A stretch of 10,992 bases of DNA from a virus (lineage: Duplodnaviria; Heunggongvirae; Uroviricota; Caudoviricetes): the IMG/VR virus record IMGVR_UViG_2684622669_000002, positions 1 through 10,992 of that record; one strand, 5' to 3'. The notes under the pieces were generated by a model. It searched no databases, was not told where the DNA came from, and saw only the letters and a list, made by a program, of their open reading frames with translations. A program made the translations under genes and the position numbers. Positions 1-10,992 of the stretch are shown piece by piece (the stretch's first letter is position 1; each line of letters starts with the position of its first letter).

Positions 1-12
1 CCGCAGATGGTT
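1..12. promoter_or_regulatory. Partial OL3-like cI operator, truncated by the window edge
   Basis: Window starts 'ccgcagatggtt', which matches the right-hand part of the lambda-type 17-bp operator TATCACCGCAGATGGTT as I recall it. Position left of the cI operon is as expected for OL. Confidence 0.45.
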
Positions 13-155
13 ATCTGTATGTTTTTTATATGAATTTATTTTTTGCAGGGGTGCATTGTTTGGTAGGTGAGAGATCTGAATTGCTATGTTTAGTGAGTTG
101 TATCTATTAATTTTCAAATAAATACAATTGGTTATGTGTTTTTTTGGGGGGGTTA

Positions 156-186
156 GGCAAAGAAAACCCGGCACTGAGGCCGGGTT
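156..186 (-). terminator. Rho-independent terminator ending the cI-cassette operon (tImm-like)
   Basis: On the minus strand, an 8-bp perfect stem (AACCCGGC / GCCGGGTT, + coords 165-172 and 179-186) with a 6-nt loop is followed by TTTTCTTTG. It begins 6 nt after the stop of the 192..563 ORF. Confidence 0.7.
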
Positions 187-191
187 GTGTG

Positions 192-563
192 TTACTTAAG
201 AACGAGTCCGTTTAAGGCATCAAGGATTTTGGAAACATAACTTCCAAAAATGTAGGCGCAAAATGCGAACACGAAACTGACAACGACCGCAGATGCCTTA
301 ATGGTGGTTTTTGCTGAGCTAATGCTTGTCTCAATACCTGACAGACGAGAATCAACAGATTTTATATCTGACTTTACCTCAGCGAGATCGCGCTTGATGT
401 ATTCAACATCAGACTCTAGCTTTGCAACTCTAGCCTCAAGCATGTTACCTCCGCCGTTTCCTCCACCATGCCGTGAGTATGCATCATCAGTGGAATAGTG
501 TCCAATTGGGCGAGATATGTTTTGATTTGGACGAAGCTGAGCAACCTTGTTATCTAAACTCAT
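192..563 (-). CDS. Hypothetical 123-aa tail-anchored coiled-coil membrane protein; distal gene of the rexAB-slot cassette, candidate membrane effector
   Basis: ORF with ATG at 563-561 and an AGGA about 10 nt upstream. Translation shows a polar N-terminus, a Gly-rich linker (GGGNGGGN), a heptad-like segment (LEARVAKLESDVEYIKRDLAEVKSDIKSVDSRL) and one C-terminal hydrophobic helix (AVVVSFVFAFCAYIFGSYV). No family recognised. Confidence 0.6.
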   Translation of the reverse strand: MSLDNKVAQLRPNQNISRPIGHYSTDDAYSRHGGGNGGGNMLEARVAKLESDVEYIKRDLAEVKSDIKSVDSRLSGIETSISSAKTTIKASAVVVSFVFAFCAYIFGSYVSKILDALNGLVLK

Positions 564-987
564 CGCGAACTGATCCTGTTATCTTCACGTCAAAAAACGA
601 ACTTTTTACATCAATTACTTCGCCTTTCTCAGGATTAACCAGTGATGCTCTAACTTCGAATATCCCAGGCTTGATAATTTTCACCCTTGGGAAGTTAATT
701 CTCATAGAAGTTGATACGATGGTTTCTCCATCGTTGGCTTCTGCTACCGTAAAAAACTTATGGTTGGAGTACAGTTTTGTGTCAATTGGTATCGGTATTT
801 CTTGAGCATTGAAAACCTCAATGCCTATGGAATATTTTTTTGTAGCCTTAAGGCAGATAAAAAAAGCGCCAAATGACAGATCCACTTCATGGGAGTCTTT
901 ATCCATTTCATAGATAAGAACTGGAGTTACGTGGTTGCCTTCATCCATCGCAATTGGAATGATATAAGAAATACGTTCTTTAATCAT
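550..987 (-). CDS. Hypothetical 145-aa protein; proximal gene of the rexAB-slot cassette
   Basis: ORF begins 7 nt after the cI stop codon and overlaps the next ORF by 14 nt. No hydrophobic helix and no catalytic motif I recognise. Alternating hydrophobic pattern suggests a beta-rich fold. Confidence 0.6.
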   Translation of the reverse strand: MIKERISYIIPIAMDEGNHVTPVLIYEMDKDSHEVDLSFGAFFICLKATKKYSIGIEVFNAQEIPIPIDTKLYSNHKFFTVAEANDGETIVSTSMRINFPRVKIIKPGIFEVRASLVNPEKGEVIDVKSSFFDVKITGSVRDEFR

Positions 988-994
988 TTACGTG

Positions 995-1711
<717 letters not shown>

Positions 1712-1718
1712 TTAAATC

Positions 1719-1784
1719 TATCACCGCAAGGGATAAACTTCTAACACCGTGCGTGTTGACTATTTTACCTCTAGCGGTGATAAT
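1719..1784. promoter_or_regulatory. OR3-OR2-OR1 operator cluster with divergent PRM/PR promoters
   Basis: OR3 tatcaccgcaagggata (1719-1735), OR2 taacaccgtgcgtgttg (1742-1758), OR1 tacctctagcggtgata (1766-1782). PR -35 ttgact (1756-1761) and -10 gataat (1779-1784) with 17-nt spacing. cro RBS aggagg at 1799-1804. Confidence 0.85.
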
Positions 1785-1808
1785 GATTGCCTGTACTAAG
1801 GAGGTTGT

Positions 1809-2009
1809 ATGGAACAACGCATAACCCTGAAAGATTATGCAATACGCTTTGGCCAAACCAAGACGGCTAAAGATCTCGGCGTATATCAAAGCGCGATTAA
1901 CAAGGCCATTCATGCAGGCCGAAAGATTTTTTTAACTATAAACGCTGATGGAAGCGTTTATGCGGAAGAAATAAAGCCCTTCCCAAGTAACAAAAAAACA
2001 ACTGCATAA
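1809..2009 (+). CDS. cro: Cro repressor
   Basis: 66-aa translation [64 protein letters not shown] matches lambda Cro apart from a couple of conservative substitutions. Strong RBS; sits immediately right of OR1/PR. Confidence 0.95.
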
Positions 2010-2016
2010 GTAACAC

Positions 2017-2062
2017 CGCTCTTTTCACAATGGACATTCGTCCTACGTCGCTGACAAAGCGA
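2017..2062 (+). promoter_or_regulatory. nutR-like N-utilisation site: boxA plus boxB hairpin
   Basis: boxA-like cgctctttt at 2017-2025, just after the cro stop. Perfect 5-bp stem with pentaloop at 2048-2062 (TCGCT-GACAA-AGCGA). The loop differs from lambda boxB (GAAAA) and resembles the P22-type loop as I recall it. Confidence 0.5.
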
Positions 2063-2146
2063 GCCCCAAGATATCTGACCAACTAAGGCCATATGCGTTT
2101 CAACGCATACCTTTCAACTAACTATTCACTATTGGAAAATTAACAA

Positions 2147-2446
2147 ATGACACAAGCAAGTTACAGCAAGCCAACACAGCGAGAAATTGATCGCGCAGAA
2201 ACAGATTTACTCATCAACCTGTCAACGCTTACCCAGCGCGGTCTGGCAAAGATGATTGGCTGTCATGAATCGAAGATAAGCAGAACGGACTGGAGATTTA
2301 TTGCTTCGGTCTTGTGTGCTTTTGGAATGGCATCAGACATCAGTCCGATTAGCAGGGCTTTTAAGTATGCGCTTGATGGACTCACCAATAAAAAACGCCC
2401 GGTGTGCAAGACCGAGCGTTCTGAACAAATACAAATGGAATTTTAA
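2147..2446 (+). CDS. cII: CII-like transcriptional activator
   Basis: 99-aa protein with a central HTH-like segment (QRGLAKMIGCHESKISR). C-terminus (LTNKKRP…TERSEQIQMEF) is almost identical to the lambda CII C-terminal region; N-terminal half differs. Position after cro/nutR fits. Confidence 0.8.
   Translation: MTQASYSKPTQREIDRAETDLLINLSTLTQRGLAKMIGCHESKISRTDWRFIASVLCAFGMASDISPISRAFKYALDGLTNKKRPVCKTERSEQIQMEF
2388..2418 (-). terminator. oop-like antisense terminator inside the 3' end of the cII-like gene
   Basis: On the minus strand, a 7-bp stem with one G-U pair (CGCUCGG…CCGGGCG), 9-nt loop, then UUUUUU. Same location and orientation as the lambda oop RNA terminator within cII. Confidence 0.45.
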
Positions 2447-2468
2447 TAACATCCAACGAGGTAATTAT

Positions 2469-2741
2469 ATGCGAAACAAAGGCTTTAATCCACCTGATAC
2501 ACACAAAGAAGCTAAGCGTTTGCGCTTCCTTCGTTCCATTGATGAAAGAACTCAAATCTCTTTTGTGAAAGTTGCCAGAACTGAGCTTCTGAAGGCTGAG
2601 GCGAGGGAGTTGCTCCCATCTCTACCAAAAGAGGAGGAATATACGTTCATTCCAAACGCATTTCTGGAAAAGCTGCTCAAAGAAGACATATCCGTAAGTC
2701 AGTTTAACGATGTTCTTAAGGTCTTTCGTCAAGGCAGGTAG
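2469..2741 (+). CDS. Hypothetical 90-aa protein between cII and the initiator gene
   Basis: ATG at 2469 is preceded by GAGG at 2458-2461 with 7-nt spacing. The track ORF 2301..2741 is the same frame extended upstream into cII and is unlikely to be the true start. Charged, probably helical protein; no family recognised. Confidence 0.5.
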   Translation: MRNKGFNPPDTHKEAKRLRFLRSIDERTQISFVKVARTELLKAEARELLPSLPKEEEYTFIPNAFLEKLLKEDISVSQFNDVLKVFRQGR

Positions 2742-2743
2742 TT

Positions 2744-3691
2744 ATGAGCAATACAGCAAAAATCTACGATTTCAGCGCCGCACACGAGCGCAGGAGCAAC
2801 AGGATGGAGAACCAGAAAACTGGTTACATTCCGTTGTACCGGAGCATTCTGAAACAGTCATGGGCGAAAGATGTTTATCTTCGCACCCTGTGGGAAAACC
2901 TTCTCCTGAATGCCGCCAGAAAGCCATACAAAGCGAATTTCAAAGGTCATGAATGGCATCTGCAACCCGGTCAACTGGTTGTGACAGCAGCTGATTTAGG
3001 TCTTCAGTTATGCGACAGGCATGGCAAGCCAGCAAGCCGCGATCAGGTTGAGCGGATGCTTCAGGTTTTTGTGAAAGAGGGGATGATCTCCATTGATGGA
3101 GAGAAGAAAAAAGGTCGTGTGATCACCATCACAAATTACCATGAATACGCTCAAAAAATGGACAATTTACCCGCACATGAAGCCGCACAAACAACCGCAC
3201 ATGATGCCGCACATGACGAAGCCAGTAACGGCGCGGCTTTCGGGGTACATGCCGCACATGAAAGCGCACATGAAGCCGCACAAACAACCGCACATCATGA
3301 ACAAGAAGGTATTAACAAGAATATAAATAATACCCCCCTACCCCCCAATGGGGGAGGCGATGGGCAGGTTAAACCTGAACGTCGCAAGGCAGAACGAATC
3401 GACTACGAATCCTTCCTGAACGCCTACAACACCGAAGTCGGTGACAGACTGCCACACGCTGTTGCGGTCAACGAGAAACGCAAACGCCGCCTGAAGAAAA
3501 TCATCCCGCAACTGAAAACGCCAAACGTGGACGGTTTCAGAGCGTATGTCAGGGCGTTTGTACATCAGGCCAAGCCGTTTTACTTCGGAGACAACGATAC
3601 TGGCTGGACGGCCGATTTTGATTACCTGCTGAGAGAAGATTCGTTAACGGGAGTTCGTGAAGGGAAGTTTGCAGACAGGGGGATTGCATGA
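2744..3691 (+). CDS. Replication initiator, O-like (N-terminal iteron-binding domain, repetitive linker, C-terminal domain)
   Basis: N-terminus [10 protein letters not shown]… resembles lambda O (MTNTAKILNF…). Iteron repeats lie inside the coding sequence, as in lambdoid O genes. Followed by a helicase gene with ATGA start/stop overlap. Confidence 0.85.
3169..3300. repeat. Origin iterons: about 8 copies of a CCGCACA(T/A)GA-type unit in two clusters, followed by an AT-rich segment
   Basis: Direct repeats visible at about 3170, 3182, 3195, 3206, 3250, 3263, 3275 and 3288. Followed by AT-rich 3301-3332 and a CCCCC-AAT-GGGGG hairpin at 3342-3354. Layout matches a lambdoid ori within the O gene. 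Confidence 0.7.
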
Positions 3692-5064
3692 AACAGGATA
3701 TCGAAGCGAGCGTTATCGGTGGCCTGCTGATTGGTGGATTAACACCAACTGCCAGTGACGTTCTGGCAACGCTGGAGCCGGAAGCGTTTTCAATTCCGCT
3801 CTACCGGAAAGCCTTCGAGGTTATCCGGAAGCAGGCGAGAAACAGAAACCTAATCGACGCGCTGATGGTTGCCGAGGCGTGCGGAGAGGAGCATTTCACG
3901 TCAATCCTGATGACCAGCAAAAACTGCCCGAGTGCCGCAAACCTGAAGGGATATGCCGGAATGGTCGCGGATAACTATCACCGCCGTCTGGTGCTGGAAA
4001 TCATGGATGAAATGCGTGAACCAATTCAGAGCGGAACCATCGACGCATCGAGTCAGGCGATGGACGAGCTTGTAAAGCGTCTTTCAGCCATCAGAAAGCC
4101 CCGTGACGAGGTTAAACCTGTACGGTTAGGGGAAATCATCACTGACTACACTGACACGCTTGACAGGCGTCTGAGGAACGGAGAAGAGTCAGATACCCTG
4201 AAGACCGGAATCGAAGAACTTGACGCCATCACCGGAGGGATGAACGCGGAAGACCTGGTGATTATCGCCGCTCGTCCTGGTATGGGGAAAACCGAACTGG
4301 CGCTGAAGATTGCCGAAGGCGTTGCAAGTCGTGTTATTCCTGGTTCTGACGTCCGGCGCGGGGTATTGATTTTCTCAATGGAAATGAGCGCATTGCAGAT
4401 TGCAGAGCGAAGCATTGCCAACGCCGGGAGGATGTCGGTTAGCGTACTGCGAAATCCTGCATCGATGGATGACGAGGGCTGGGCACGTGTTGCTAACGGC
4501 ATGAGTCAGCTTGCAGATTTGGATGTATGGGTAGTCGATGCTTCTCGGTTATCGGTCGAAGAAATACGCTCAATCGCAGAACGGCATAAGCAGGAAAATC
4601 CAAACCTGTCACTCATCATGGCGGATTATCTTGGCCTGATTGAGAAGCCGAAAGCAGACCGCAACGACCTCGCAATTGCTCACATCTCCGGAAGCCTGAA
4701 GGCGATGGCGAAAGACCTGAAAACGCCAGTTATCTCCCTGAGTCAGCTTTCGCGCGATGTTGAGAAGCGACCAAACAAACGCCCGACAAACGCAGATTTG
4801 CGTGATTCAGGAAGCATTGAGCAGGACGCAGACTCAATCATCATGCTCTATCGGGAAGCGGTATATGACGAGAACGGTAGCGCCGCGCCATTTGCTGAAA
4901 TCATCGTGACGAAAAACCGTTTTGGCTCGCTTGGTACGGTTTACCAGCGGTTCTGTAACGGACACTTTGTTGCATGTGACCAGGATGAAGCAAGACAGAT
5001 TTGCACAGCATCAAATGCACCTGCTGCGCGTGGCAGACGATATGCACAAGGGGCTGACGTATGA
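3688..5064 (+). CDS. DnaB-family replicative helicase (phage-encoded, P22 gp12-like)
   Basis: 458 aa. Walker A ARPGMGKT, DnaB-like motifs ([17 protein letters not shown]), N-terminal DnaB-type domain. Start overlaps the stop of the O-like gene. Confidence 0.9.
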
Positions 5065-5136
5065 CCATCTACATAACTGAGCTAATAACAGGCCTGCTGG
5101 TAATCGCAGGCCTTTTTATTTGGGGGAGAGGGAAGT

Positions 5137-5463
5137 GTGGCTGACTGGCAAATTCCAATCATCATTCTTGCCGGAGCTTCGCTGGTTGCTGGCTTTATCC
5201 TGCTGAAAAAGCATAAAGACCGTGATCAAAAAGTCGAAGTTCTATATGGGTATCCAGCGAACTGCACAACATGGCTGACCATTTACCACTACCGAAAATC
5301 AGGCCGCTGGGTATTCGAATGGGATGATCTGTTCGCTGAAAAGCGACCAAAGTCATGGGGAGACATCAGCGAATGCATGATGTTTGAAGAAAGAAAATCC
5401 GGCGCAACTCGAGAAGAGTTTAACGAAGCGTGGAGGCGATTAAGTGAGAGAGGGTATCAATGA
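5137..5463 (+). CDS. Hypothetical 108-aa protein with an N-terminal transmembrane helix (ren-position gene)
   Basis: GTG start at 5137 preceded by GGGGGAGAGGG. N-terminal hydrophobic helix IPIIILAGASLVAGFILL. Stop overlaps the start of the next ORF (ATGA). Confidence 0.45.
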   Translation: MADWQIPIIILAGASLVAGFILLKKHKDRDQKVEVLYGYPANCTTWLTIYHYRKSGRWVFEWDDLFAEKRPKSWGDISECMMFEERKSGATREEFNEAWRRLSERGYQ

Positions 5464-5696
5464 GCAGAATTAAATCTGGTTATCCAGGGAATGGGGAATA
5501 CCCGAAGCCATATTTACCTGTAACAGTGACCACTCAATCTAAGCATCCACATCATTTCAAGCATAGTGGTACAGCTTATTGGAGTGGAAAGCGGTGGATA
5601 GGTATTGATGGGTTCAAAATTGGGTATGCAAAGGTAATTAAATGGGAATTTAACATCGCACACTGGAGTTCATCCCATGAGGAAACTAACGTTTGA
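5460..5696 (+). CDS. Hypothetical 78-aa protein
   Basis: ORF translationally coupled to the preceding ORF (ATGA overlap); its 3' end overlaps the ninB start by 20 nt. No family recognised. Confidence 0.45.
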   Translation: MSRIKSGYPGNGEYPKPYLPVTVTTQSKHPHHFKHSGTAYWSGKRWIGIDGFKIGYAKVIKWEFNIAHWSSSHEETNV

Positions 5697-6117
5697 ACTA
5701 AGAAGCCCCATCCATCAGCAGAACGCCATTCAAGCCATCCAGCAAATCCTTCCAGACCCAACCAAACCAATCGTAGTAACCATTCAGGAGCGCAACCGCA
5801 GCTTAGACCAGAATCGAAAGCTTTGGGCTTGCCTTGGTGACGTCTCGCGTCAGGTTGAATGGCATGGTCGATGGCTGGATGCAGAAAGCTGGAAGTGTGT
5901 GTTTACCGCAGCATTAAAGCAGCAGGACGTTGTTCCTAACCTTGCCGGGAATGGCTTTGTGGTAATAGGCCAGTCAACCAGCAGGATGCGTGTAAGCGAA
6001 TTTGCGGAGCTATTAGAGCTTATACAGGCATTCGGTACAGAGCGTGGCGTTAAGTGGTCAGACGAAGCGAGACTGGCTCTGGAGTGGAAAGCGAGATGGG
6101 GAGATCGGGCTGCATGA
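5677..6117 (+). CDS. ninB: NinB recombination protein (Orf-family, ssDNA-binding)
   Basis: 146-aa translation is near-identical to lambda NinB as I recall it (…LTFE.RSP.HQQNAI…LPDPTKPIVVTIQERNRSLDQNRKLWACLGDVSRQVEWHGRWLDAESWKCVFTAALKQQDVVPNLAGNGFVVIGQSTSRMRV…). Confidence 0.9.
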   Translation: MRKLTFELRSPIHQQNAIQAIQQILPDPTKPIVVTIQERNRSLDQNRKLWACLGDVSRQVEWHGRWLDAESWKCVFTAALKQQDVVPNLAGNGFVVIGQSTSRMRVSEFAELLELIQAFGTERGVKWSDEARLALEWKARWGDRAA

Positions 6118-6641
6118 CTATCAAATCAAATACGCCAGCACACGACAAGGACTGCTGGCAAACGCCGCTCTGGCTTTTTGATGCGCTGGATATTGAGTTT
6201 GGGTTCTGGTTGGATTCGGCAGCGAGCGACAAAAATGCTCTGTGCGCTCACTGGTTAACTGAGGCCGACGACGCGCTAAATTCTGAGTGGGTAAGCCACG
6301 GTGCAATCTGGAATAACCCACCGTACAGCAATATCAGGCCGTGGGTGGAAAAAGCCGCTGAGCAGTGCATACAACAGCGACAGACGGTAGTTATGCTTGT
6401 GCCAGAGGATATGTCAGTCGGATGGTTCAGCAAGGCTCTGGAGAGTGTCGACGAAGTTCGCATTATCACTGATGGACGGATTAATTTTATCGAACCATCG
6501 ACGGGGCTGGAGAAGAAGGGAAACAGCAAAGGCTCCATGCTGCTGATTTGGCGACCGTTCATCAGTCCTCGACGGATGTTTACTACCGTATCCAAAGCGG
6601 CATTGATGGCGATCGGGCAGGGCGTCAGGAGGGCTGCATGA
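6114..6641 (+). CDS. Phage DNA N6-adenine methyltransferase (phage Dam family)
   Basis: Start ATG at 6114 overlaps the ninB stop. NPPY catalytic motif ([10 protein letters not shown]). Size and position are typical of nin-region phage Dam proteins. The track ORF from 6054 is an upstream in-frame extension. Confidence 0.85.
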
Positions 6642-6814
6642 GACGACAGCGACGAAGCATCACCGACATCATCTGTGAAAACTGCAAATACCTTCCAACG
6701 AAACGCTCCAGAAATAAACGCAAGCCAATCCCAAAAGAATCTGACGTAAAAACCTTCAACTACACGGCTCACCTGTGGGATATCCGGTGGCTAAGACATC
6801 GTGCGAGGAAATGA
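6638..6814 (+). CDS. ninE: NinE
   Basis: 58-aa product [55 protein letters not shown] matches lambda NinE as recalled. Start overlaps the Dam stop (ATGA). Confidence 0.8.
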
Positions 6815-6816
6815 CA

Positions 6817-7176
6817 ATGGATTATTCACAGTTAAGTGATTTTGAAATTAACGTGGCGGTATTCGAAGCCATTCATAACGGATCACCGGATTACAAAGAA
6901 GGTGAGAATGGCGATATGGTGTTTGTCTCATTTGAGGGAGACATTGTAAACGGAGACGCAGTTGAAGTAGAAGTTGAGCGCGGATCCTTTAACCCATGCG
7001 CAAACCCAGCAGACGCATGGCCGATTATTGAAAAATACAGGATTAGCATTATCAATCTCGATGAAGACGAGTGGGGTGCACGCGGTGTGGCCTACTGTAA
7101 ATCTAAGCGAGCTATACATGAAAATCCCCTCCGCGCCGCCATGATTGTCTTTCTCATGATGCAGAGAATCCAATAA
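6817..7176 (+). CDS. Hypothetical acidic nin-region protein (about 120 aa)
   Basis: ATG at 6817 preceded by GAGG at 6805-6808; ATG 6811 is an alternative start. Acidic N-terminal half. Ends TAATG, overlapping the ninF start. Confidence 0.55.
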   Translation: MDYSQLSDFEINVAVFEAIHNGSPDYKEGENGDMVFVSFEGDIVNGDAVEVEVERGSFNPCANPADAWPIIEKYRISIINLDEDEWGARGVAYCKSKRAIHENPLRAAMIVFLMMQRIQ

Positions 7177-7352
7177 TGCTTAGCCCATCCCAATCCCTTC
7201 AATACCAGAAAGAAAGCGTCGAGCGAGCTTTAACGTGCGCTAACTGCGGTCAGAAGCTGCATGTGCTGGAAGTTCACGTGTGTGAGCACTGCTGCGCAGA
7301 ACTGATGAGCGATCCGAATAGCTCAATGTACGAGGAAGAAGACGATGAATGA
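7176..7352 (+). CDS. ninF: NinF
   Basis: Not in the supplied ORF track (below size cutoff). Hand translation gives MLSPSQSLQYQKESVERALTCANCGQKLHVLEVHVCEHCCAELMSDPNSSMYEEEDDE, which matches lambda NinF as recalled, with Cys-rich motifs. Confidence 0.7.
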   Translation: MLSPSQSLQYQKESVERALTCANCGQKLHVLEVHVCEHCCAELMSDPNSSMYEEEDDE

Positions 7353-8070
7353 GTTAATAAATGGCAATGCCATCAAAATGACAAGCATTGAAATCGCTGA
7401 GTTGGTAGAAAGCCGCCATAGCAATGTAAAAGTATCCATAGATAGATTGGTGAAACGTGGCGTTATCAAGCCTCCTGCATTGCAGCACACTAACATAATC
7501 AATGATTTAGGTGTTATTACCGGGAAGCGTGATTTCTACGTCTTCGAGGGCGAACAAGGTAAGCGAGACAGCATTATTGTCGTCGCTCAGTTGTCGCCGG
7601 AATTCACCGCTCGTCTTGTTGACCGTTGGCGAGAGCTTGAAGAAGCTGCAGTTAATATCCCCAAAACGTTACCGGAAGCGTTGCGCCTTGCTGCTGATCT
7701 TGCTGAGCAGAAAATGCAACTGGAAAACCAGCTCGCAATTGCCGCACCTAAAGTTGAGTTTGCCGATCGAGTTGGCGAGGCCAGCGGAATTTTGATTGGA
7801 AACTATGCAAAGGTTGTTGGTATTGGTCCAAACAAACTGTTTGCATGGATGCGCGATCACAAAATCCTTATTGCTTCAGGTTCCCGGCGCAATGTGCCAA
7901 TGCAGGAATATATGGATCGCGGCTATTTCACAGTGAAAGAAACAGCGGTCAACACAAATCACGGAATACAGATATCGTTTACCACAAAAATCACCGGGCG
8001 CGGTCAACAGTGGCTGACCAGAAAGTTGCTCGATAACGGAATGCTGAAAGTAACAGGGGAGGCTGCTTAA
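7345..8070 (+). CDS. Phage antirepressor, KilAC (ANT) domain protein
   Basis: 241 aa. C-terminal segment (NYAKVVGIGPNKLFAWMRDHKILIASGSRRNVPMQEYMDRGYF) has the ANT/KilA-C pattern. N-terminal domain is of the AntA/Rha-like type. RBS GAGGAAG upstream. Confidence 0.8.
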   Translation: MNELINGNAIKMTSIEIAELVESRHSNVKVSIDRLVKRGVIKPPALQHTNIINDLGVITGKRDFYVFEGEQGKRDSIIVVAQLSPEFTARLVDRWRELEEAAVNIPKTLPEALRLAADLAEQKMQLENQLAIAAPKVEFADRVGEASGILIGNYAKVVGIGPNKLFAWMRDHKILIASGSRRNVPMQEYMDRGYFTVKETAVNTNHGIQISFTTKITGRGQQWLTRKLLDNGMLKVTGEAA

Positions 8071-8360
8071 TGGCTAACCTACGCAAAGAAGCACGCGGCA
8101 GAGAATGCCAGGTACGTATTTACGGCGTATGCAATGGCAATCCTGAAACTACAGTTCTGGCACATTACCGGATGGCTGGAATTTGCGGAACGGGAATGAA
8201 GCCTGACGACCTGATCGGTGCATGGGCTTGTAGTGCGTGTCACGATGAAATCGACCGACGCACCCATAATCTCGACAACAAAGACGCCAGACTTTACCAC
8301 CTCGAAGGCGTGATCAGAACGCAGGCGATACTGCTGAAGGAGGGGAAGATTAAGCCATGA
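8070..8360 (+). CDS. ybcO: YbcO-like protein (DUF1364, Cys/His-rich putative nuclease)
   Basis: 96-aa protein with CxxxxxC … CxxC-H motif. Resembles DLP12 prophage YbcO as recalled. Sits before rusA as in DLP12-type nin regions. Confidence 0.7.
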   Translation: MANLRKEARGRECQVRIYGVCNGNPETTVLAHYRMAGICGTGMKPDDLIGAWACSACHDEIDRRTHNLDNKDARLYHLEGVIRTQAILLKEGKIKP

Positions 8361-8881
8361 ACGGTAAAAGATATCCAACACAAAAAGAAATCAATGAATT
8401 GTATGAATATAATAGCGAAACAGGTTTGTTTATATACAAGAGAAGAGAAAGTGTAAGAGAGTGCTGGAATTCAACATATGCCGGTAAGATTGCTGGTTCT
8501 ATAGATGAAAAAGGATACGTTCGTATATCTGTAAATAAAAAAGTTTGTCGAGCTCATAGAATCGCATGGATATCCTTTTATGGAAGTGAACCTGATGGGG
8601 AAATTGACCACATAAATGGAATTAAAAGCGATAACAGAATATGCAATTTGCGCGTTGTAGATGATAAACAGAACTCAAGGAACAGAAAAAAGCCTATTAA
8701 TAATCGCTCTGGAGTAATTGGTGTTGCCTACTATAAGAAGAATAAAAAGTGGGGCGCATATATAAACAGTGATAATAAAAAGATATTTCTTGGATTATAC
8801 GATGACATATCTCTAGCCGTTAATGCCAGAAAATTGGCGGAATCACGATTGGGCTATCACCATAATCATGGGAGAGGATAA
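8357..8881 (+). CDS. HNH endonuclease with AP2-type DNA-binding domain (homing-endonuclease-like)
   Basis: HNH_3-type motif (EIDHINGIKSDNRICNLRVV) followed by an AP2-like segment (SGVIGVAYYKKNKKWGAYI). Codon usage is visibly AT-rich compared with flanking genes. Confidence 0.8.
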   Translation: MNGKRYPTQKEINELYEYNSETGLFIYKRRESVRECWNSTYAGKIAGSIDEKGYVRISVNKKVCRAHRIAWISFYGSEPDGEIDHINGIKSDNRICNLRVVDDKQNSRNRKKPINNRSGVIGVAYYKKNKKWGAYINSDNKKIFLGLYDDISLAVNARKLAESRLGYHHNHGRG

Positions 8882-9244
8882 ATGGCAGAATACAGATTCA
8901 CACTTCCGTACCCACCGTCGCTGAACACCTACTGGCGAAGACGGGGAAGCCAATACTACATCAGCGATAAAGGCCAGAAATACCGAAAAGACGTTCAGCA
9001 AATCATCCGCCAACTTAAGTTAGACATTTTCACCAAATCACGACTCCGCATCAAAGTCATCGCAGACGTTCCAGACTCCCGCCGCCGCGACCTCGACAAC
9101 ATCCTGAAAGGTTTACTCGACTCCCTTATCCACGCCGGATTTGCGGAAGACGACGAGCAATTCGATGACATTCGCGTAATTCGTGGCGTGAAAGTACCAG
9201 GCGGAAGGCTTGGAATAAAAATCACCGAACTGGAGAACGCATGA
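8882..9244 (+). CDS. rusA: RusA Holliday junction resolvase
   Basis: 120 aa with the conserved RusA pattern (…DVPDSRRRDLDNILKGLLDSL…GGRLGIKITE…), comparable to E. coli RusA. Confidence 0.9.
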   Translation: MAEYRFTLPYPPSLNTYWRRRGSQYYISDKGQKYRKDVQQIIRQLKLDIFTKSRLRIKVIADVPDSRRRDLDNILKGLLDSLIHAGFAEDDEQFDDIRVIRGVKVPGGRLGIKITELENA

Positions 9245-9429
9245 ACGCCACAATTCAAACGATACCAGAGCTTCTTATCCAGACACGAGGCAATCAGACC
9301 GAAGTGGCGAGGATGCTTTCCTGCGCAAGAGGAACAGTGCTCAAGTACAACCGAGACAGCAAAGGCGAGCGTCATGTAATAGTTAACGGCGTCCTGATGG
9401 TCAAACAGGGCAAGAGGGGAAGACGATGA
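9241..9429 (+). CDS. ninH: NinH-like small DNA-binding protein
   Basis: 62 aa. IPELLIQTRGNQTEVARMLSCARGTVLKY matches lambda NinH (IPDMLVEAYGNQTEVARRLKCSRGTVRKY as recalled). Confidence 0.75.
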   Translation: MNATIQTIPELLIQTRGNQTEVARMLSCARGTVLKYNRDSKGERHVIVNGVLMVKQGKRGRR

Positions 9430-9914
9430 GCATAAGAGAACTAAACCTCACCAAAGAACAGCACGATTGGCTGAATGGCTGGCTTGAACTGTGGGGCGCA
9501 TGGGTTTATTCAGGCCGCCTGGAAAAGCGCATGAGCAGCGTAATAGCGAAGTTCATGGAGAGCGTAGAGCCGGGAAGAGTTATGACAAGGCCAATGTGTA
9601 ATGATGATGATGGAATGTTGATTTCTCAGGTCGTCGATTCCGTCATGTACATTGACAAGAAAGCCTTTGGCATCCTCCTCAGCTACTACGCTCATGGATC
9701 TTCCAAGCATGCCATTGCATCTTACTATCATCGTGTCGCAAGACCTCGCAAGATGTTATGCCGGGGCGGCGGGCGCATTCAAAAACCATCGCTCGCAACC
9801 TGTCGACGGGAAGTTGACGAAATCCTTAATGCCTCGTTGTTTATGATTTACCCGGTTCTTGATAGTGCGTTTAAAAACCGGAAACGTGTAGAGAAAATTA
9901 AACATGTAGCATAG
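9426..9914 (+). CDS. Late-gene antiterminator Q-like protein (probably phage-21-type)
   Basis: Last gene of the nin operon, immediately upstream of a TTGACA promoter element and the lysis genes, and adjacent to a phage-21-type S/R cassette. Call rests on position and size; sequence not independently matched. Confidence 0.6.
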   Translation: MSIRELNLTKEQHDWLNGWLELWGAWVYSGRLEKRMSSVIAKFMESVEPGRVMTRPMCNDDDGMLISQVVDSVMYIDKKAFGILLSYYAHGSSKHAIASYYHRVARPRKMLCRGGGRIQKPSLATCRREVDEILNASLFMIYPVLDSAFKNRKRVEKIKHVA

Positions 9915-9920
9915 AACGTG

Positions 9921-9952
9921 TTGACATCATTGAGCAAATGAGCAACACTATT
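9921..9952 (+). promoter_or_regulatory. Candidate late promoter PR'
   Basis: Consensus -35 TTGACA at 9921-9926, 7 nt after the Q stop. A-T-rich candidate -10 (cactat/actatt) 19-20 nt downstream, so spacing is not ideal. Called mainly on position. Confidence 0.35.
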
Positions 9953-9963
9953 GGCATAAGCTG

Positions 9964-10004
9964 CCGTTAGTGACTCTTAAGTTGCAACGGTGGATTTTTT
10001 TATT
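9964..10004 (+). terminator. Terminator-like stem-loop plus T-tract shortly downstream of the candidate PR'
   Basis: CCGTT (9964-9968) pairs with AACGG (9986-9990) and can extend inward with a bulge; TTTTTTTATTT follows at 9995-10005. Could be a short-leader tR' or a pause/processing structure. Confidence 0.35.
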
Positions 10005-10005
10005 T

Positions 10006-10080
10006 GGGTCAGTCGTATAAAGGTCATTACGGAAGGCTGTTAACCTTCTTATCGTGGTTCGAGTCCACGCTGTCCCGCCA
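10006..10080 (+). tRNA. tRNA-like gene, anticodon GTT (Asn), CCA encoded
   Basis: Hand-folded cloverleaf. Acceptor gggtcag/ctgtccc with one T-T mismatch. Anticodon stem gaagg/ccttc with loop ctGTTaa. T-arm cgtgg-ttcgagt-ccacg. 3' gCCA. D-stem is only 3 bp. Confidence 0.5.
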
Positions 10081-10085
10081 AACAT

Positions 10086-10161
10086 GCTGGTTTAGCTCCA
10101 ATGGTAGAGCAGTCGCCTTGTAAGCGAATGGGTAGCGGTTCAAGTCCGTTAACCAGAACCA
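10086..10161 (+). tRNA. tRNA-like gene, anticodon TGT (Thr), CCA encoded
   Basis: Hand-folded cloverleaf. D-arm gctc-caatggta-gagc. Anticodon loop ctTGTaa. T-arm agcgg-ttcaagt-ccgtt. Acceptor gctggtt/aaccaga with a mismatch at the first pair. 3' aCCA. Confidence 0.55.
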
Positions 10162-10168
10162 TAACTGA

Positions 10169-10229
10169 GCCGTAGCCACTGGCTATCCTGAATTCATCAG
10201 TGATAGTTACGCTGCGGCCTTCTTTTTTC
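10169..10229 (+). terminator. Structured region with T-tract downstream of the tRNAs (candidate tR')
   Basis: Imperfect long hairpin (gccgtagc … gctgcggc with internal ctatc/gatag pairing) followed by ccttcttttttcc. Lies about 300 nt downstream of the candidate PR' and before the holin RBS. Confidence 0.35.
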
Positions 10230-10279
10230 CCCTTCCCAATATAAGAACTACGCAATCCGTTACTGGCGGAGGCGTTGCT

Positions 10280-10495
10280 ATGAAATCAATGGACAAAATC
10301 TCAACTGGCATTGCCTACGGAACATCTGCTGGTAGTGCGGGATACTGGTTTTTGCAGTGGTTGGATCAGGTCAGTCCGTCACAGTGGGCTGCGATTGGAG
10401 TGCTTGGAAGCCTTGTCTTGGGTTTTCTCACTTATCTGACAAATCTTTATTTCAAGATTAAAGAAGATAAGCGTAAGGCTGCGAGAGGTGAATAA
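10280..10495 (+). CDS. S: Phage-21-type pinholin S (dual-start MKSM motif)
   Basis: 71-aa translation [60 protein letters not shown]…KAARGE matches S21 as recalled. Two TM segments. GGAGG RBS 8 nt upstream. Confidence 0.95.
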
Positions 10496-10992
10496 TGTCG
10501 CCGTCATTACGCAAGGCTGTTGCAGCTGCTATTGGTGGTGGGGCTGTTGCCATAGCGTCTGTGCTCATCACTGGTCCAGGTGGTAACGATGGTCTGGAAG
10601 GTGTCAGCTACATACCATACAAAGATATCGTTGGCGTATGGACTGTATGTCACGGGCACACCGGAAAAGACATTATGCCCGGTAAAACGTATACCGAAGC
10701 AGAATGCAAAGCCCTCCTGAATAAAGACCTTGCCACGGTCGCCAGACAAATTAACCCGTACATCAAAGTCGATATACCGGAAACAACGCGCGGCGCTCTT
10801 TACTCGTTCGTTTACAACGTGGGCGCTGGTAATTTCAGAACATCGACGCTTCTTCGCAAAATAAACCAGGGTGATATCAAAGGCGCATGTGACCAGCTAC
10901 GTCGCTGGACATACGCTGGCGGTAAGCAATGGAAAGGGCTGATGACCCGTCGTGAGATTGAGCGTGAAGTCTGTTTGTGGGGGCAACAATGA
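10495..10992 (+). CDS. R: SAR endolysin R (phage-21-type lysozyme with N-terminal signal-anchor-release domain)
   Basis: 165 aa. N-terminal Gly/Ala-rich weakly hydrophobic SAR segment ([23 protein letters not shown]), then a T4-lysozyme-like catalytic domain. Start overlaps the holin stop (TAATG). Confidence 0.95.

Follow-up and report, generated by a model that had tools for sequence, protein, structure and literature searches.

We describe a two-gene cassette that takes the place of rexA and rexB beside the cI repressor gene of a lambda-immunity prophage. The cassette lies in a stretch of 10,992 nucleotides (nt) from a virus of the Caudoviricetes (positions 1 to 10,992 of IMG/VR record IMGVR_UViG_2684622669_000002), which we refer to in its entirety as the window. 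Its two genes, here called A and B, encode a soluble beta-sandwich protein of 145 amino acids (aa) and a 123-aa coiled-coil protein with a single transmembrane (TM) helix, and related pairs recur behind unrelated repressors in other genera, with exchange of both the partner of B and the membrane end of B. Taken as a whole, these observations are best explained if A–B is a lysogen-expressed moron whose products form a membrane-anchored complex that recognises and arrests superinfecting phage, a reading that we think has about an even chance of being correct. That the pair serves phage exclusion is, on the present analysis, probable.

A two-gene cassette replaces rexA and rexB

The original prediction, made from the sequence and a list of its open reading frames (ORFs), placed two ORFs of 145 and 123 aa between lambda-like flanks, and both the ORFs and the flanks proved to be as described. 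Comparison with lambda by blastn returned only two blocks of homology around the cassette. The left block, window 1-186, corresponds to lambda 35640-35826 at 93% identity and runs up to the rexB stop codon, and the right block, window 999-2023, corresponds to lambda 37231-38255 at 96.9% identity. Between them, the 1404-bp rexB-rexA segment of lambda is replaced by 812 bp (window 187-998) that have no similarity to lambda in the same comparison. The neighbouring cI protein has 233 of its 237 residues (98%) as in lambda cI. The A–B segment is a clean cassette swap in a lambda-immunity prophage, with the following features.

192..563, minus strand: gene B, 123 aa, ATG start (ORF; PHROG 6136)
550..987, minus strand: gene A, 145 aa, ATG start (ORF; PHROG 5893)
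187..998, strand not applicable: replaced segment, 812 bp in place of lambda rexB-rexA
995..1708, minus strand: cI repressor, 237 aa, lambda immunity (Pfam Peptidase_S24, E 7e-29; HTH_3, E 3e-11)
156..186, minus strand: intrinsic terminator, 8-bp stem (6 GC pairs) followed by a T-rich tail (terminator scan)
1709..1808, strand not applicable: OR/PRM/PR region (lambda homology, within the block of 96.9% identity)

A and B belong to an operon that begins with cI. The start codon of A lies 7 nt past the cI stop codon, and the ATG of B falls within the final 14 nt of A, an overlap that indicates translational coupling. Scanning the minus strand revealed no terminator-like sites separating cI, A and B and no promoter-like sites between cI and A or inside A. 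The sole terminator-like hairpin found on that strand (186..165) begins 5 nt past the B stop codon, and because it is inside the lambda-homologous block 1-186 we take it to be the equivalent of tImm. A PR-like element, TTGACT-17-GATAAT, is present on the plus strand at 1756-1784, and PRM is, judging from homology with lambda, the presumed lysogenic promoter of cI-A-B. In lambda, an internal promoter, pLIT, lies upstream of rexB; in contrast, A and B overlap and no comparable internal promoter precedes B.

Several of these features are those of a moron. The cassette ends in its own terminator after B, and its base composition is unlike that of its neighbours, with 37% GC in A and 43% in B, compared to 45% in cI and 48% in the remaining window (37% for A against 45-48% for the flanks). 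Additionally, lambda, phage HK544 and the window have common flanks around three different inserts. A promoter of its own is the one moron feature that the cassette does not show: nothing promoter-like was found upstream of A, and the unit would thus depend on the promoters of the repressor, as rexA does. In HK544 and CL707, both lambda-immunity phages, the slot between cI and tImm holds an unrelated pair of 93 and 183 aa (L007:1695-2534 for HK544) that resembles Sakai ECs2991/ECs2992. A paper on Tai tail-assembly interference, to which HK544 had led, was set aside as a lead since HK544 is only a challenge phage there.

A is a soluble beta-sandwich and B a putative tail-anchored coiled-coil protein

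Protein A is a soluble, all-beta protein that forms an eight-stranded beta-sandwich and carries no enzyme signature. It matches PHROG 5893, annotated ‘unknown function’, over positions 1-140 of 140 (E 8.8e-64); it has no match in Pfam, NCBIfam or PADLOC, and comparison with PDB sequence profiles returned nothing. Fold searches yielded generic immunoglobulin-like or carbohydrate-binding-module-like sandwiches only in the PDB, and uncharacterised phage proteins only in BFVD. The family is small. A search of 5.8 billion proteins gave 20 clusters, from Salmonella, Escherichia, Edwardsiella and Dryocola, and an exhaustive search of 1.84 billion cluster representatives with the A profile gave 19 representatives at E ≤ 1e-3. 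We presume A to be the recognition subunit and the partner of B.

Protein B matches PHROG 6136, likewise annotated ‘unknown function’, over positions 1-120 of 120 (E 2.9e-46). Its AlphaFold2 model is of low confidence (pLDDT 68, pTM 0.30) and served for secondary structure only; in this model residues 1-39 are disordered and residues 40-121 form a single helix. The protein divides into three parts.

444..563, minus strand: B residues 1-40, variable disordered N-tail (pLDDT ~50)
294..443, minus strand: B residues 41-90, coiled coil of 7 uninterrupted heptads (heptad analysis)
195..293, minus strand: B residues 91-123, TM helix and tail, TM type T1 (hydropathy)

The N-tail ends in a Gly-rich hinge, GGGNGGG. 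In the coiled coil that follows, the a and d positions are 100% hydrophobic and largely beta-branched (a = VVLILII, d = LLIVVIA), and its opening is a family-invariant core motif, (ML)EARVAKLESDVEYIKRD. Across 35 sequences, L49 and E50 of this core are invariant and R45, V46, A47, D52, Y55, I56, R58 and D59 nearly so, and the motif is kept from Vibrio to Alphaproteobacteria. The single TM helix spans approximately residues 91-111 (Kyte-Doolittle 19-residue maximum of 2.11 at residues 92-110), and the C-terminus is a conserved 12-aa tail, KILDALNGLVLK; helix and tail are strongly conserved within each TM type. Since B has no signal sequence, its stalk is predicted to be cytoplasmic and the protein to be tail-anchored, which would make B an inner-membrane coiled-coil protein with its bulk in the cytoplasm.

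Searches of curated families with B returned nothing significant in Pfam, NCBIfam or PADLOC, nor did searches with the five TM-type variants, and PDB sequence profiles gave generic coiled coils only. Matches to XhlA, FlaC, Lpp and CorA-like proteins fell below the respective cut-offs and were rejected as coiled-coil noise. In NCBI, B is nevertheless named ‘hemolysin XhlA’. Its score against Pfam XhlA (PF10779) is 21.6 bits, compared to a gathering cut-off of 34.7, and covers residues 42-95, which is the coiled coil only; the other B variants have no XhlA match, and NCBIfam gives none for B. The name looks like an annotation carry-over or artefact. The prediction that neither protein belongs to a family that can be named therefore stands for curated functional families and needs amending in two respects, as both proteins fall in PHROGs of unknown function and B carries this sub-threshold label.

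The small XhlA of Bacillus subtilis PBSX, the protein behind PF10779, does resemble B in build: a coiled coil at its N-terminus precedes one TM helix at its C-terminus. This membrane protein is encoded in the PBSX lysis cassette, and lysis requires it along with the holin XhlB and the endolysin XlyA. B, in contrast, is encoded in the repressor operon, ~9 kb from holin and lysozyme genes that lie on the other strand, and its Gly-rich N-tail and obligate upstream partner set it further apart. A role for B as a lysis or holin partner was rejected, as the same phage has a separate, complete S21 holin/lysozyme cassette. Taken literally, the NCBI name would make B a cell-associated haemolysin and the cassette a lysogenic-conversion virulence factor, and the cassette is indeed present in a pathogen, enteropathogenic Escherichia coli (EPEC) E2348/69. 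We consider this very improbable: the XhlA match is below threshold and confined to the coiled coil, NCBIfam returns nothing, and B lacks a signal peptide and would be cytoplasmic in its bulk. The Xenorhabdus protein named XhlA is large and secreted, and it is not related to the small PBSX XhlA. In a paper on a Mannheimia phage, haemolysis was speculated from the name alone for a one-TM ‘XhlA’ gene beside cI, and the description of the haemolysin was taken from Xenorhabdus XhlA (Cowles et al.).

The pair is conserved across genera and B has alternative partners

The A–B pair occurs in ~16 of 5426 complete E. coli genomes, the EPEC genome included. It also occurs in Salmonella phages epsilon34 (gp45/gp44) and g341c (gp40/gp39), directly downstream of a different prophage repressor, and in prophage contigs from Enterobacter and elsewhere, where a repressor gene is followed by that of an unannotated 141-148-aa protein and then by a B homologue. 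The pair is kept as a unit across genera and both proteins have many conserved homologues, which together with the PHROG matches indicates that the two ORFs are real genes.

Relatives of B were gathered from 128 loci, and the plus-strand ORFs of 137 sequences (136 fetched loci and the window) were analysed, 3733 in total. A proved to be paired almost exclusively with B: an iterated A profile matched 84 of the 3733 ORFs, 82 of which lie directly upstream of a B gene. The A-type gene usually overlaps the B gene or ends within 6 nt of its start, and remote partners of 140-170 aa are also A homologues (hhalign probability 97.2%, E 2.8e-11, 133 columns). Counted from the side of B, 82 of 134 B-type ORFs have an A partner, and most others have one of two unrelated partner families. 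The first of these comprises zinc-ribbon-like proteins of 100-130 aa with four invariant cysteines (CxxC...CxxC) that take the upstream place of A; profile-profile comparison gives a probability of 0.2% for a relationship between them and A. The second comprises proteins of ~90 aa. Neither family returned anything significant in Pfam, NCBIfam or PADLOC.

L080:3509-3889, L097:3559-3915 and 13 others, strand not given: four-cysteine partner (alignment A5)
L092:3585-3854, L129:3564-3839, L130:3572-3856, strand not given: ~90-aa partner, motif DAYSDSFGYSSFG, precedes B-type genes

The B family is modular

All B relatives have the Gly hinge and a nearly invariant core, (ML)EA-RVA[KR]LE[SA]DV-x-[YH]I[KR]. 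The N-tail varies between groups, the stalk ranges from ~40 to >200 residues in length with tandem repeats in some members, and the C-terminal membrane end is of at least five sequence types, of which B of the window represents T1. Among the longest members, a 295-aa B-type protein (L021:3890-4777) has a stalk extended by ~22-aa tandem repeats, ‘ARLTKSENRFDSKLTEVESKFD’, and a 210-aa one (L031:3872-4504) has a stalk extended by ~11-aa repeats, ‘SNKIQSVESSL’.

Partner identity correlates with identity of the B N-tail (Spearman 0.38), compared to 0.02 for the core and 0.07 for the TM end. Where partners are at least 40% identical (114 comparisons), the N-tail is common to both members in 105 and the TM type in 45, and every partner family occurs with several TM types. 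At the DNA level, the window and epsilon34 are similar in window 439-989 only (77.5% identity), a stretch that consists of A and the first ~41 codons of B. The similarity ends at 439, which is B residue ~42 and the point where the invariant core starts, and past approximately residue 65 the C-terminal end of epsilon34 gp44 differs from that of the window B. The co-variation and the break at the core indicate that the unit of inheritance is the partner together with the B N-tail, and that this unit has been recombined at the core with alternative ends consisting of stalk and TM helix. The co-variation of partner and N-tail is also suggestive of binding between the two, without being proof of it.

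Variable sensors joined to shuffled effectors are a pattern typical of defence systems. We therefore offer, tentatively and with well under even confidence, the broader proposal that the B family provides the membrane-anchored chassis shared by an unrecognised and widespread class of prophage defence, with the core RVAxLESDV..., exchangeable TM effectors, and an N-tail that docks unrelated recognition subunits. If this were true, recombination at the core would let temperate phages, from those of Enterobacteriaceae to those of Vibrio and beyond, mix sensors and effectors, and the cassette of the window would be a functional replacement of RexAB.

The pair prefers the position behind a repressor and also occurs in tail operons

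Gene context was counted over 83 non-redundant contexts. The gene directly upstream of the pair is helix-turn-helix (HTH)/S24 repressor-like in 45 of these and of the Arc/Mnt ribbon-helix-helix (RHH) type in five. Among 70 distinct upstream proteins searched against Pfam, HTH_3 was found 31 times, Peptidase_S24 21 times, Phage_CI_repr 12 times and Arc five times.

This preference bears on the question of whom the module serves. Being co-transcribed with the repressor in most contexts, it might act in the prophage's own life cycle, tuning the lysogeny-lysis switch, induction or the timing of lysis, perhaps through a regulator or protease adaptor that it holds at the membrane; a preprint on RexA and RexB reports that the two help the phage to pass from lysogeny into lytic growth. 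We find such a role improbable. The pair stands behind unrelated repressors (S24, HTH-only and Arc/Mnt) as well as in tail operons, which argues against a switch-specific partner; its rarity in E. coli genomes, and the other cassettes that other lambda-immunity phages carry in its stead, show it to be dispensable; and a part in lysis has against it that the XhlA match is under the Pfam cut-off and that the lysis genes lie in another part of the window.

In four of the five Arc/Mnt contexts (L090, L092, L129 and L103), the RHH gene overlaps the partner gene by 4 nt, giving a three-gene unit; the partner in the five is of the ~90-aa family in three and A-type in two. An overlapping Arc-like regulator is what type II toxin-antitoxin (TA) operons have, and two small coupled genes with the soluble one first, as well as the joint inheritance of cognate partner and N-tail, would suit a TA-like stabiliser that aids prophage retention, with B as a membrane toxin and A (or the zinc-ribbon or 90-aa partner) as its neutraliser. 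However, A is a stable-looking beta-sandwich in which we found neither a DNA-binding domain nor protease-labile antitoxin features, and neither A nor B matches a TA family in Pfam or NCBIfam, so that the DNA-binding antitoxin and recognisable toxin family of a type II system are both missing from the pair. A stabiliser of this kind seems to us a decidedly unlikely explanation, with the proviso that a pair may show TA-like behaviour and cause abortive infection as well.

Copies of the pair are also found inside tail operons, in at least six of the loci examined. In genomes of Photorhabdus, Xenorhabdus and Morganella and in one IMG/VR viral contig, the pair is co-directional with the genes of Mu-like tail/baseplate operons. 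Such tail-operon pairs stand after a tape-measure-like or baseplate-hub gene, and one pair stands two short ORFs downstream of a portal gene.

L020, L025, L026, L052, L096, ~2800-4500 in each, strand not given: tail/baseplate-embedded pairs of partner and B

In L025 and L026, the two tail-embedded loci that were scanned, a strong hairpin with a T-run directly follows B, and tail-embedded pairs typically have as their upstream neighbour a small protein with a signal peptide. The terminator and this neighbour fit a moron island rather than a structural role, and a structural tail function for these copies was judged unlikely given the terminator after B, the small secreted neighbours and the cytoplasmic, membrane-anchored character of B. 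Tail-operon copies with their own terminator beside small secreted proteins argue for the moron reading of the pair in general. The view of the cassette as a module of the cI slot is partly upheld: the same pair does stand behind unrelated repressors in other genera, but some relatives are inside tail operons, and a strict cI-slot element was rejected on account of the copies in Mu-like tail/baseplate operons and near a portal gene. Reading the cassette as an accessory module is strengthened by the exact replacement, the low GC content, the occurrence of the pair behind unrelated repressors, and the swappable partners and TM ends.

HK97 gp15, P22 SieA and T4 Imm block phage entry, and HK97 gp15 is a moron located in the tail gene region. 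A–B could similarly act in superinfection exclusion at the entry step, with a membrane-anchored B complex that blocks injection or inner-membrane transit without killing the cell. Such a function would accord with an inner-membrane protein encoded at prophage positions, with the copies in tail operons beside small secreted or lipoprotein-like proteins, and with the strong conservation of TM helix and C-tail within each type. Against it, the part of B that can reach the periplasm amounts to only ~12 residues, with stalk, N-tail and partner all in the cytoplasm. The known entry blockers are, to our knowledge, proteins that work singly and are exposed on the outer face. An obligatory partner in the cytoplasm that comes in three alternative folds would also be hard to account for, and we regard an entry block as unlikely.

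A–B resembles known exclusion modules in position and architecture

The original prediction likened the cassette to Rex, and the pair does share with lambda RexA-RexB the slot between the cI stop codon and tImm, co-transcription with cI, an arrangement of two genes of which the first encodes a soluble and the second a membrane protein, and an accessory, replaceable character. RexA is a dimer that binds DNA, and RexB spans the membrane with four TM segments; the Rex system excludes T4 rII and other phages by depolarising the membrane. As was also predicted, neither A nor B is a relative of these: BLASTP of A, a 145-aa beta-sandwich, against the 279-aa RexA gave E 9 and no meaningful alignment, and B against RexB gave only a low-complexity match of 13/49 (E 0.004 in a single comparison), on which grounds homology to RexA and RexB was rejected. 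The parallel thus extends to position and architecture and not to the membrane component, B being tail-anchored by a single C-terminal TM helix that follows a coiled coil, rather than having the four of RexB.

The interval between cI and N is a mosaic hotspot that houses both rexAB and bstA (PMC8585504). Like A–B, bstA of prophage BTP1 is directly downstream of the gene for the prophage's repressor, presumably under its promoter, and its synteny is kept across diverse prophages. Unlike A–B, BstA is a single protein that localises to phage DNA replication sites and has a cognate self-immunity element (PMC8585504), and it has no homology to A or B. True homologues of the pair are epsilon34 gp45/gp44 and g341c gp40/gp39, which lie behind a repressor as in the window, although the repressor (gp46) and immunity type of epsilon34 differ. 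The epsilon34 genes had been pointed out in 2008 as genes of unknown function at the rexAB position, which qualifies the suggestion that the module is undescribed; we found no characterised homologue. A two-gene architecture that would be analogous is that of mycobacteriophage Butters, from a different host phylum and with no detectable homology to the pair, whose gp30 is cytoplasmic and gp31 membrane-bound, the likeness being one of description only. The prophage-expressed proteins of Butters are reported to defend the host against attack by heterotypic phages.

A proposed mechanism of superinfection arrest

The finding of a soluble and a small membrane protein in the cI operon agrees with what had been predicted, and the slot that they occupy, known for the exclusion genes rexAB and bstA, is among the reasons for reading the pair as a candidate exclusion module. 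In the mechanism that we propose, cI-A-B would be transcribed from PRM/PRE in lysogens up to the tImm-like terminator. The TM helix of B would insert in the inner membrane, and its seven-heptad coiled coil would form a parallel, oligomeric, cytoplasmic stalk, from which the flexible, Gly-hinged N-tail could recruit cognate A. As a non-enzymatic beta-sandwich, A may then recognise a cytoplasmic component of the superinfecting phage. From here two routes can be envisaged. In the one that we rate as likelier, recognition would turn the bundled TM helices membrane-permeabilising and lead to a Rex-like abortive infection; in the alternative, the target would be sequestered at the membrane, a variant that the variable stalk length favours.

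Several observations weigh against arrest of superinfecting phage by a membrane-anchored complex. What points to expression of A–B in lysogens is operon structure alone. The position in a hotspot is circumstantial, as RexA and RexB also modulate the switch between lysogeny and lysis, and the co-variation of partner and N-tail could stem from the physical adjacency of the two coding stretches alone. The close relatives of A, with a mean column identity of 75%, are not obviously diversifying as many sensors are, and stalks with tandem repeats, in proteins of up to 295 aa, are more in keeping with a tether or spacer than with a pore. PADLOC-DB v2.0.0, which does not cover systems after 2023, contained no match for A, the remote A-type proteins, the zinc-ribbon partners or the 90-aa partners, and for the B variants it returned coiled-coil noise only (E 0.004 or worse). 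Our literature search found no functional study of the A or B family; the accession numbers of A and B appeared in no paper found, and no paper found links XhlA-like proteins to phage defence.

Other features of the window

The lysis genes lie at the far end of the window.

10280-10495, strand opposite to A–B: P21 S-type holin, 71 aa, lysis cassette
10495-10992, strand opposite to A–B: phage lysozyme, directly after the holin gene, running off the window end

Within the O-like replication gene (2744-3691) are two arrays of ~3.7 copies each of the 12-bp unit CCGCACATGAAG/A, at 3171-3216 and 3252-3295. They are probably origin iterons as in the lambda ori, and they encode His/Ala-rich repeats of the O-like protein. 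Two orphan ORFs without a Pfam match (5137-5463 and 5460-5696) stand between the DnaB-type helicase gene and ninB (5677-6117), the end of which is overlapped by a gene for a Dam-type N6-adenine methyltransferase (6054-6641). The nin region further contains a gene for an ANT/Rha-type antirepressor (7345-8070; KilAC domain, E 2e-32), in a phage whose switch is of the lambda cI/Cro kind, and an HNH endonuclease gene (8357-8881; HNH_3, E 1e-16) lies between a YbcO-like nuclease gene (8070-8360) and rusA (8882-9244).

Implications for prophage biology

Phage exclusion was first discovered, in the form of Rex, at the slot behind the prophage repressor, and the mechanism of Rex is still not understood. 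As a kind of element, A–B is a known one, a two-gene accessory unit of a prophage that stands in the repressor operon and encodes a soluble and a membrane protein. Neither protein family has been characterised, and the modular architecture of the family does not appear in the literature searched. Candidate defence loci are common, and A–B is a well-defined and experimentally tractable one. As a simpler, unrelated unit in the Rex slot, it offers a tractable comparison, having a soluble binder, a one-TM coiled-coil partner, natural TM chimeras and three partners. Recognition of the family would also put right the misleading label ‘hemolysin XhlA’, which has already given rise to speculation on virulence. 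If the pair does serve phage exclusion, it would add a new family of systems to those known, together with an instance of module shuffling at a conserved joint within a gene, and the presence of the cassette in pathogens (EPEC E2348/69 and many Salmonella) means that it could affect host range in phage therapy.

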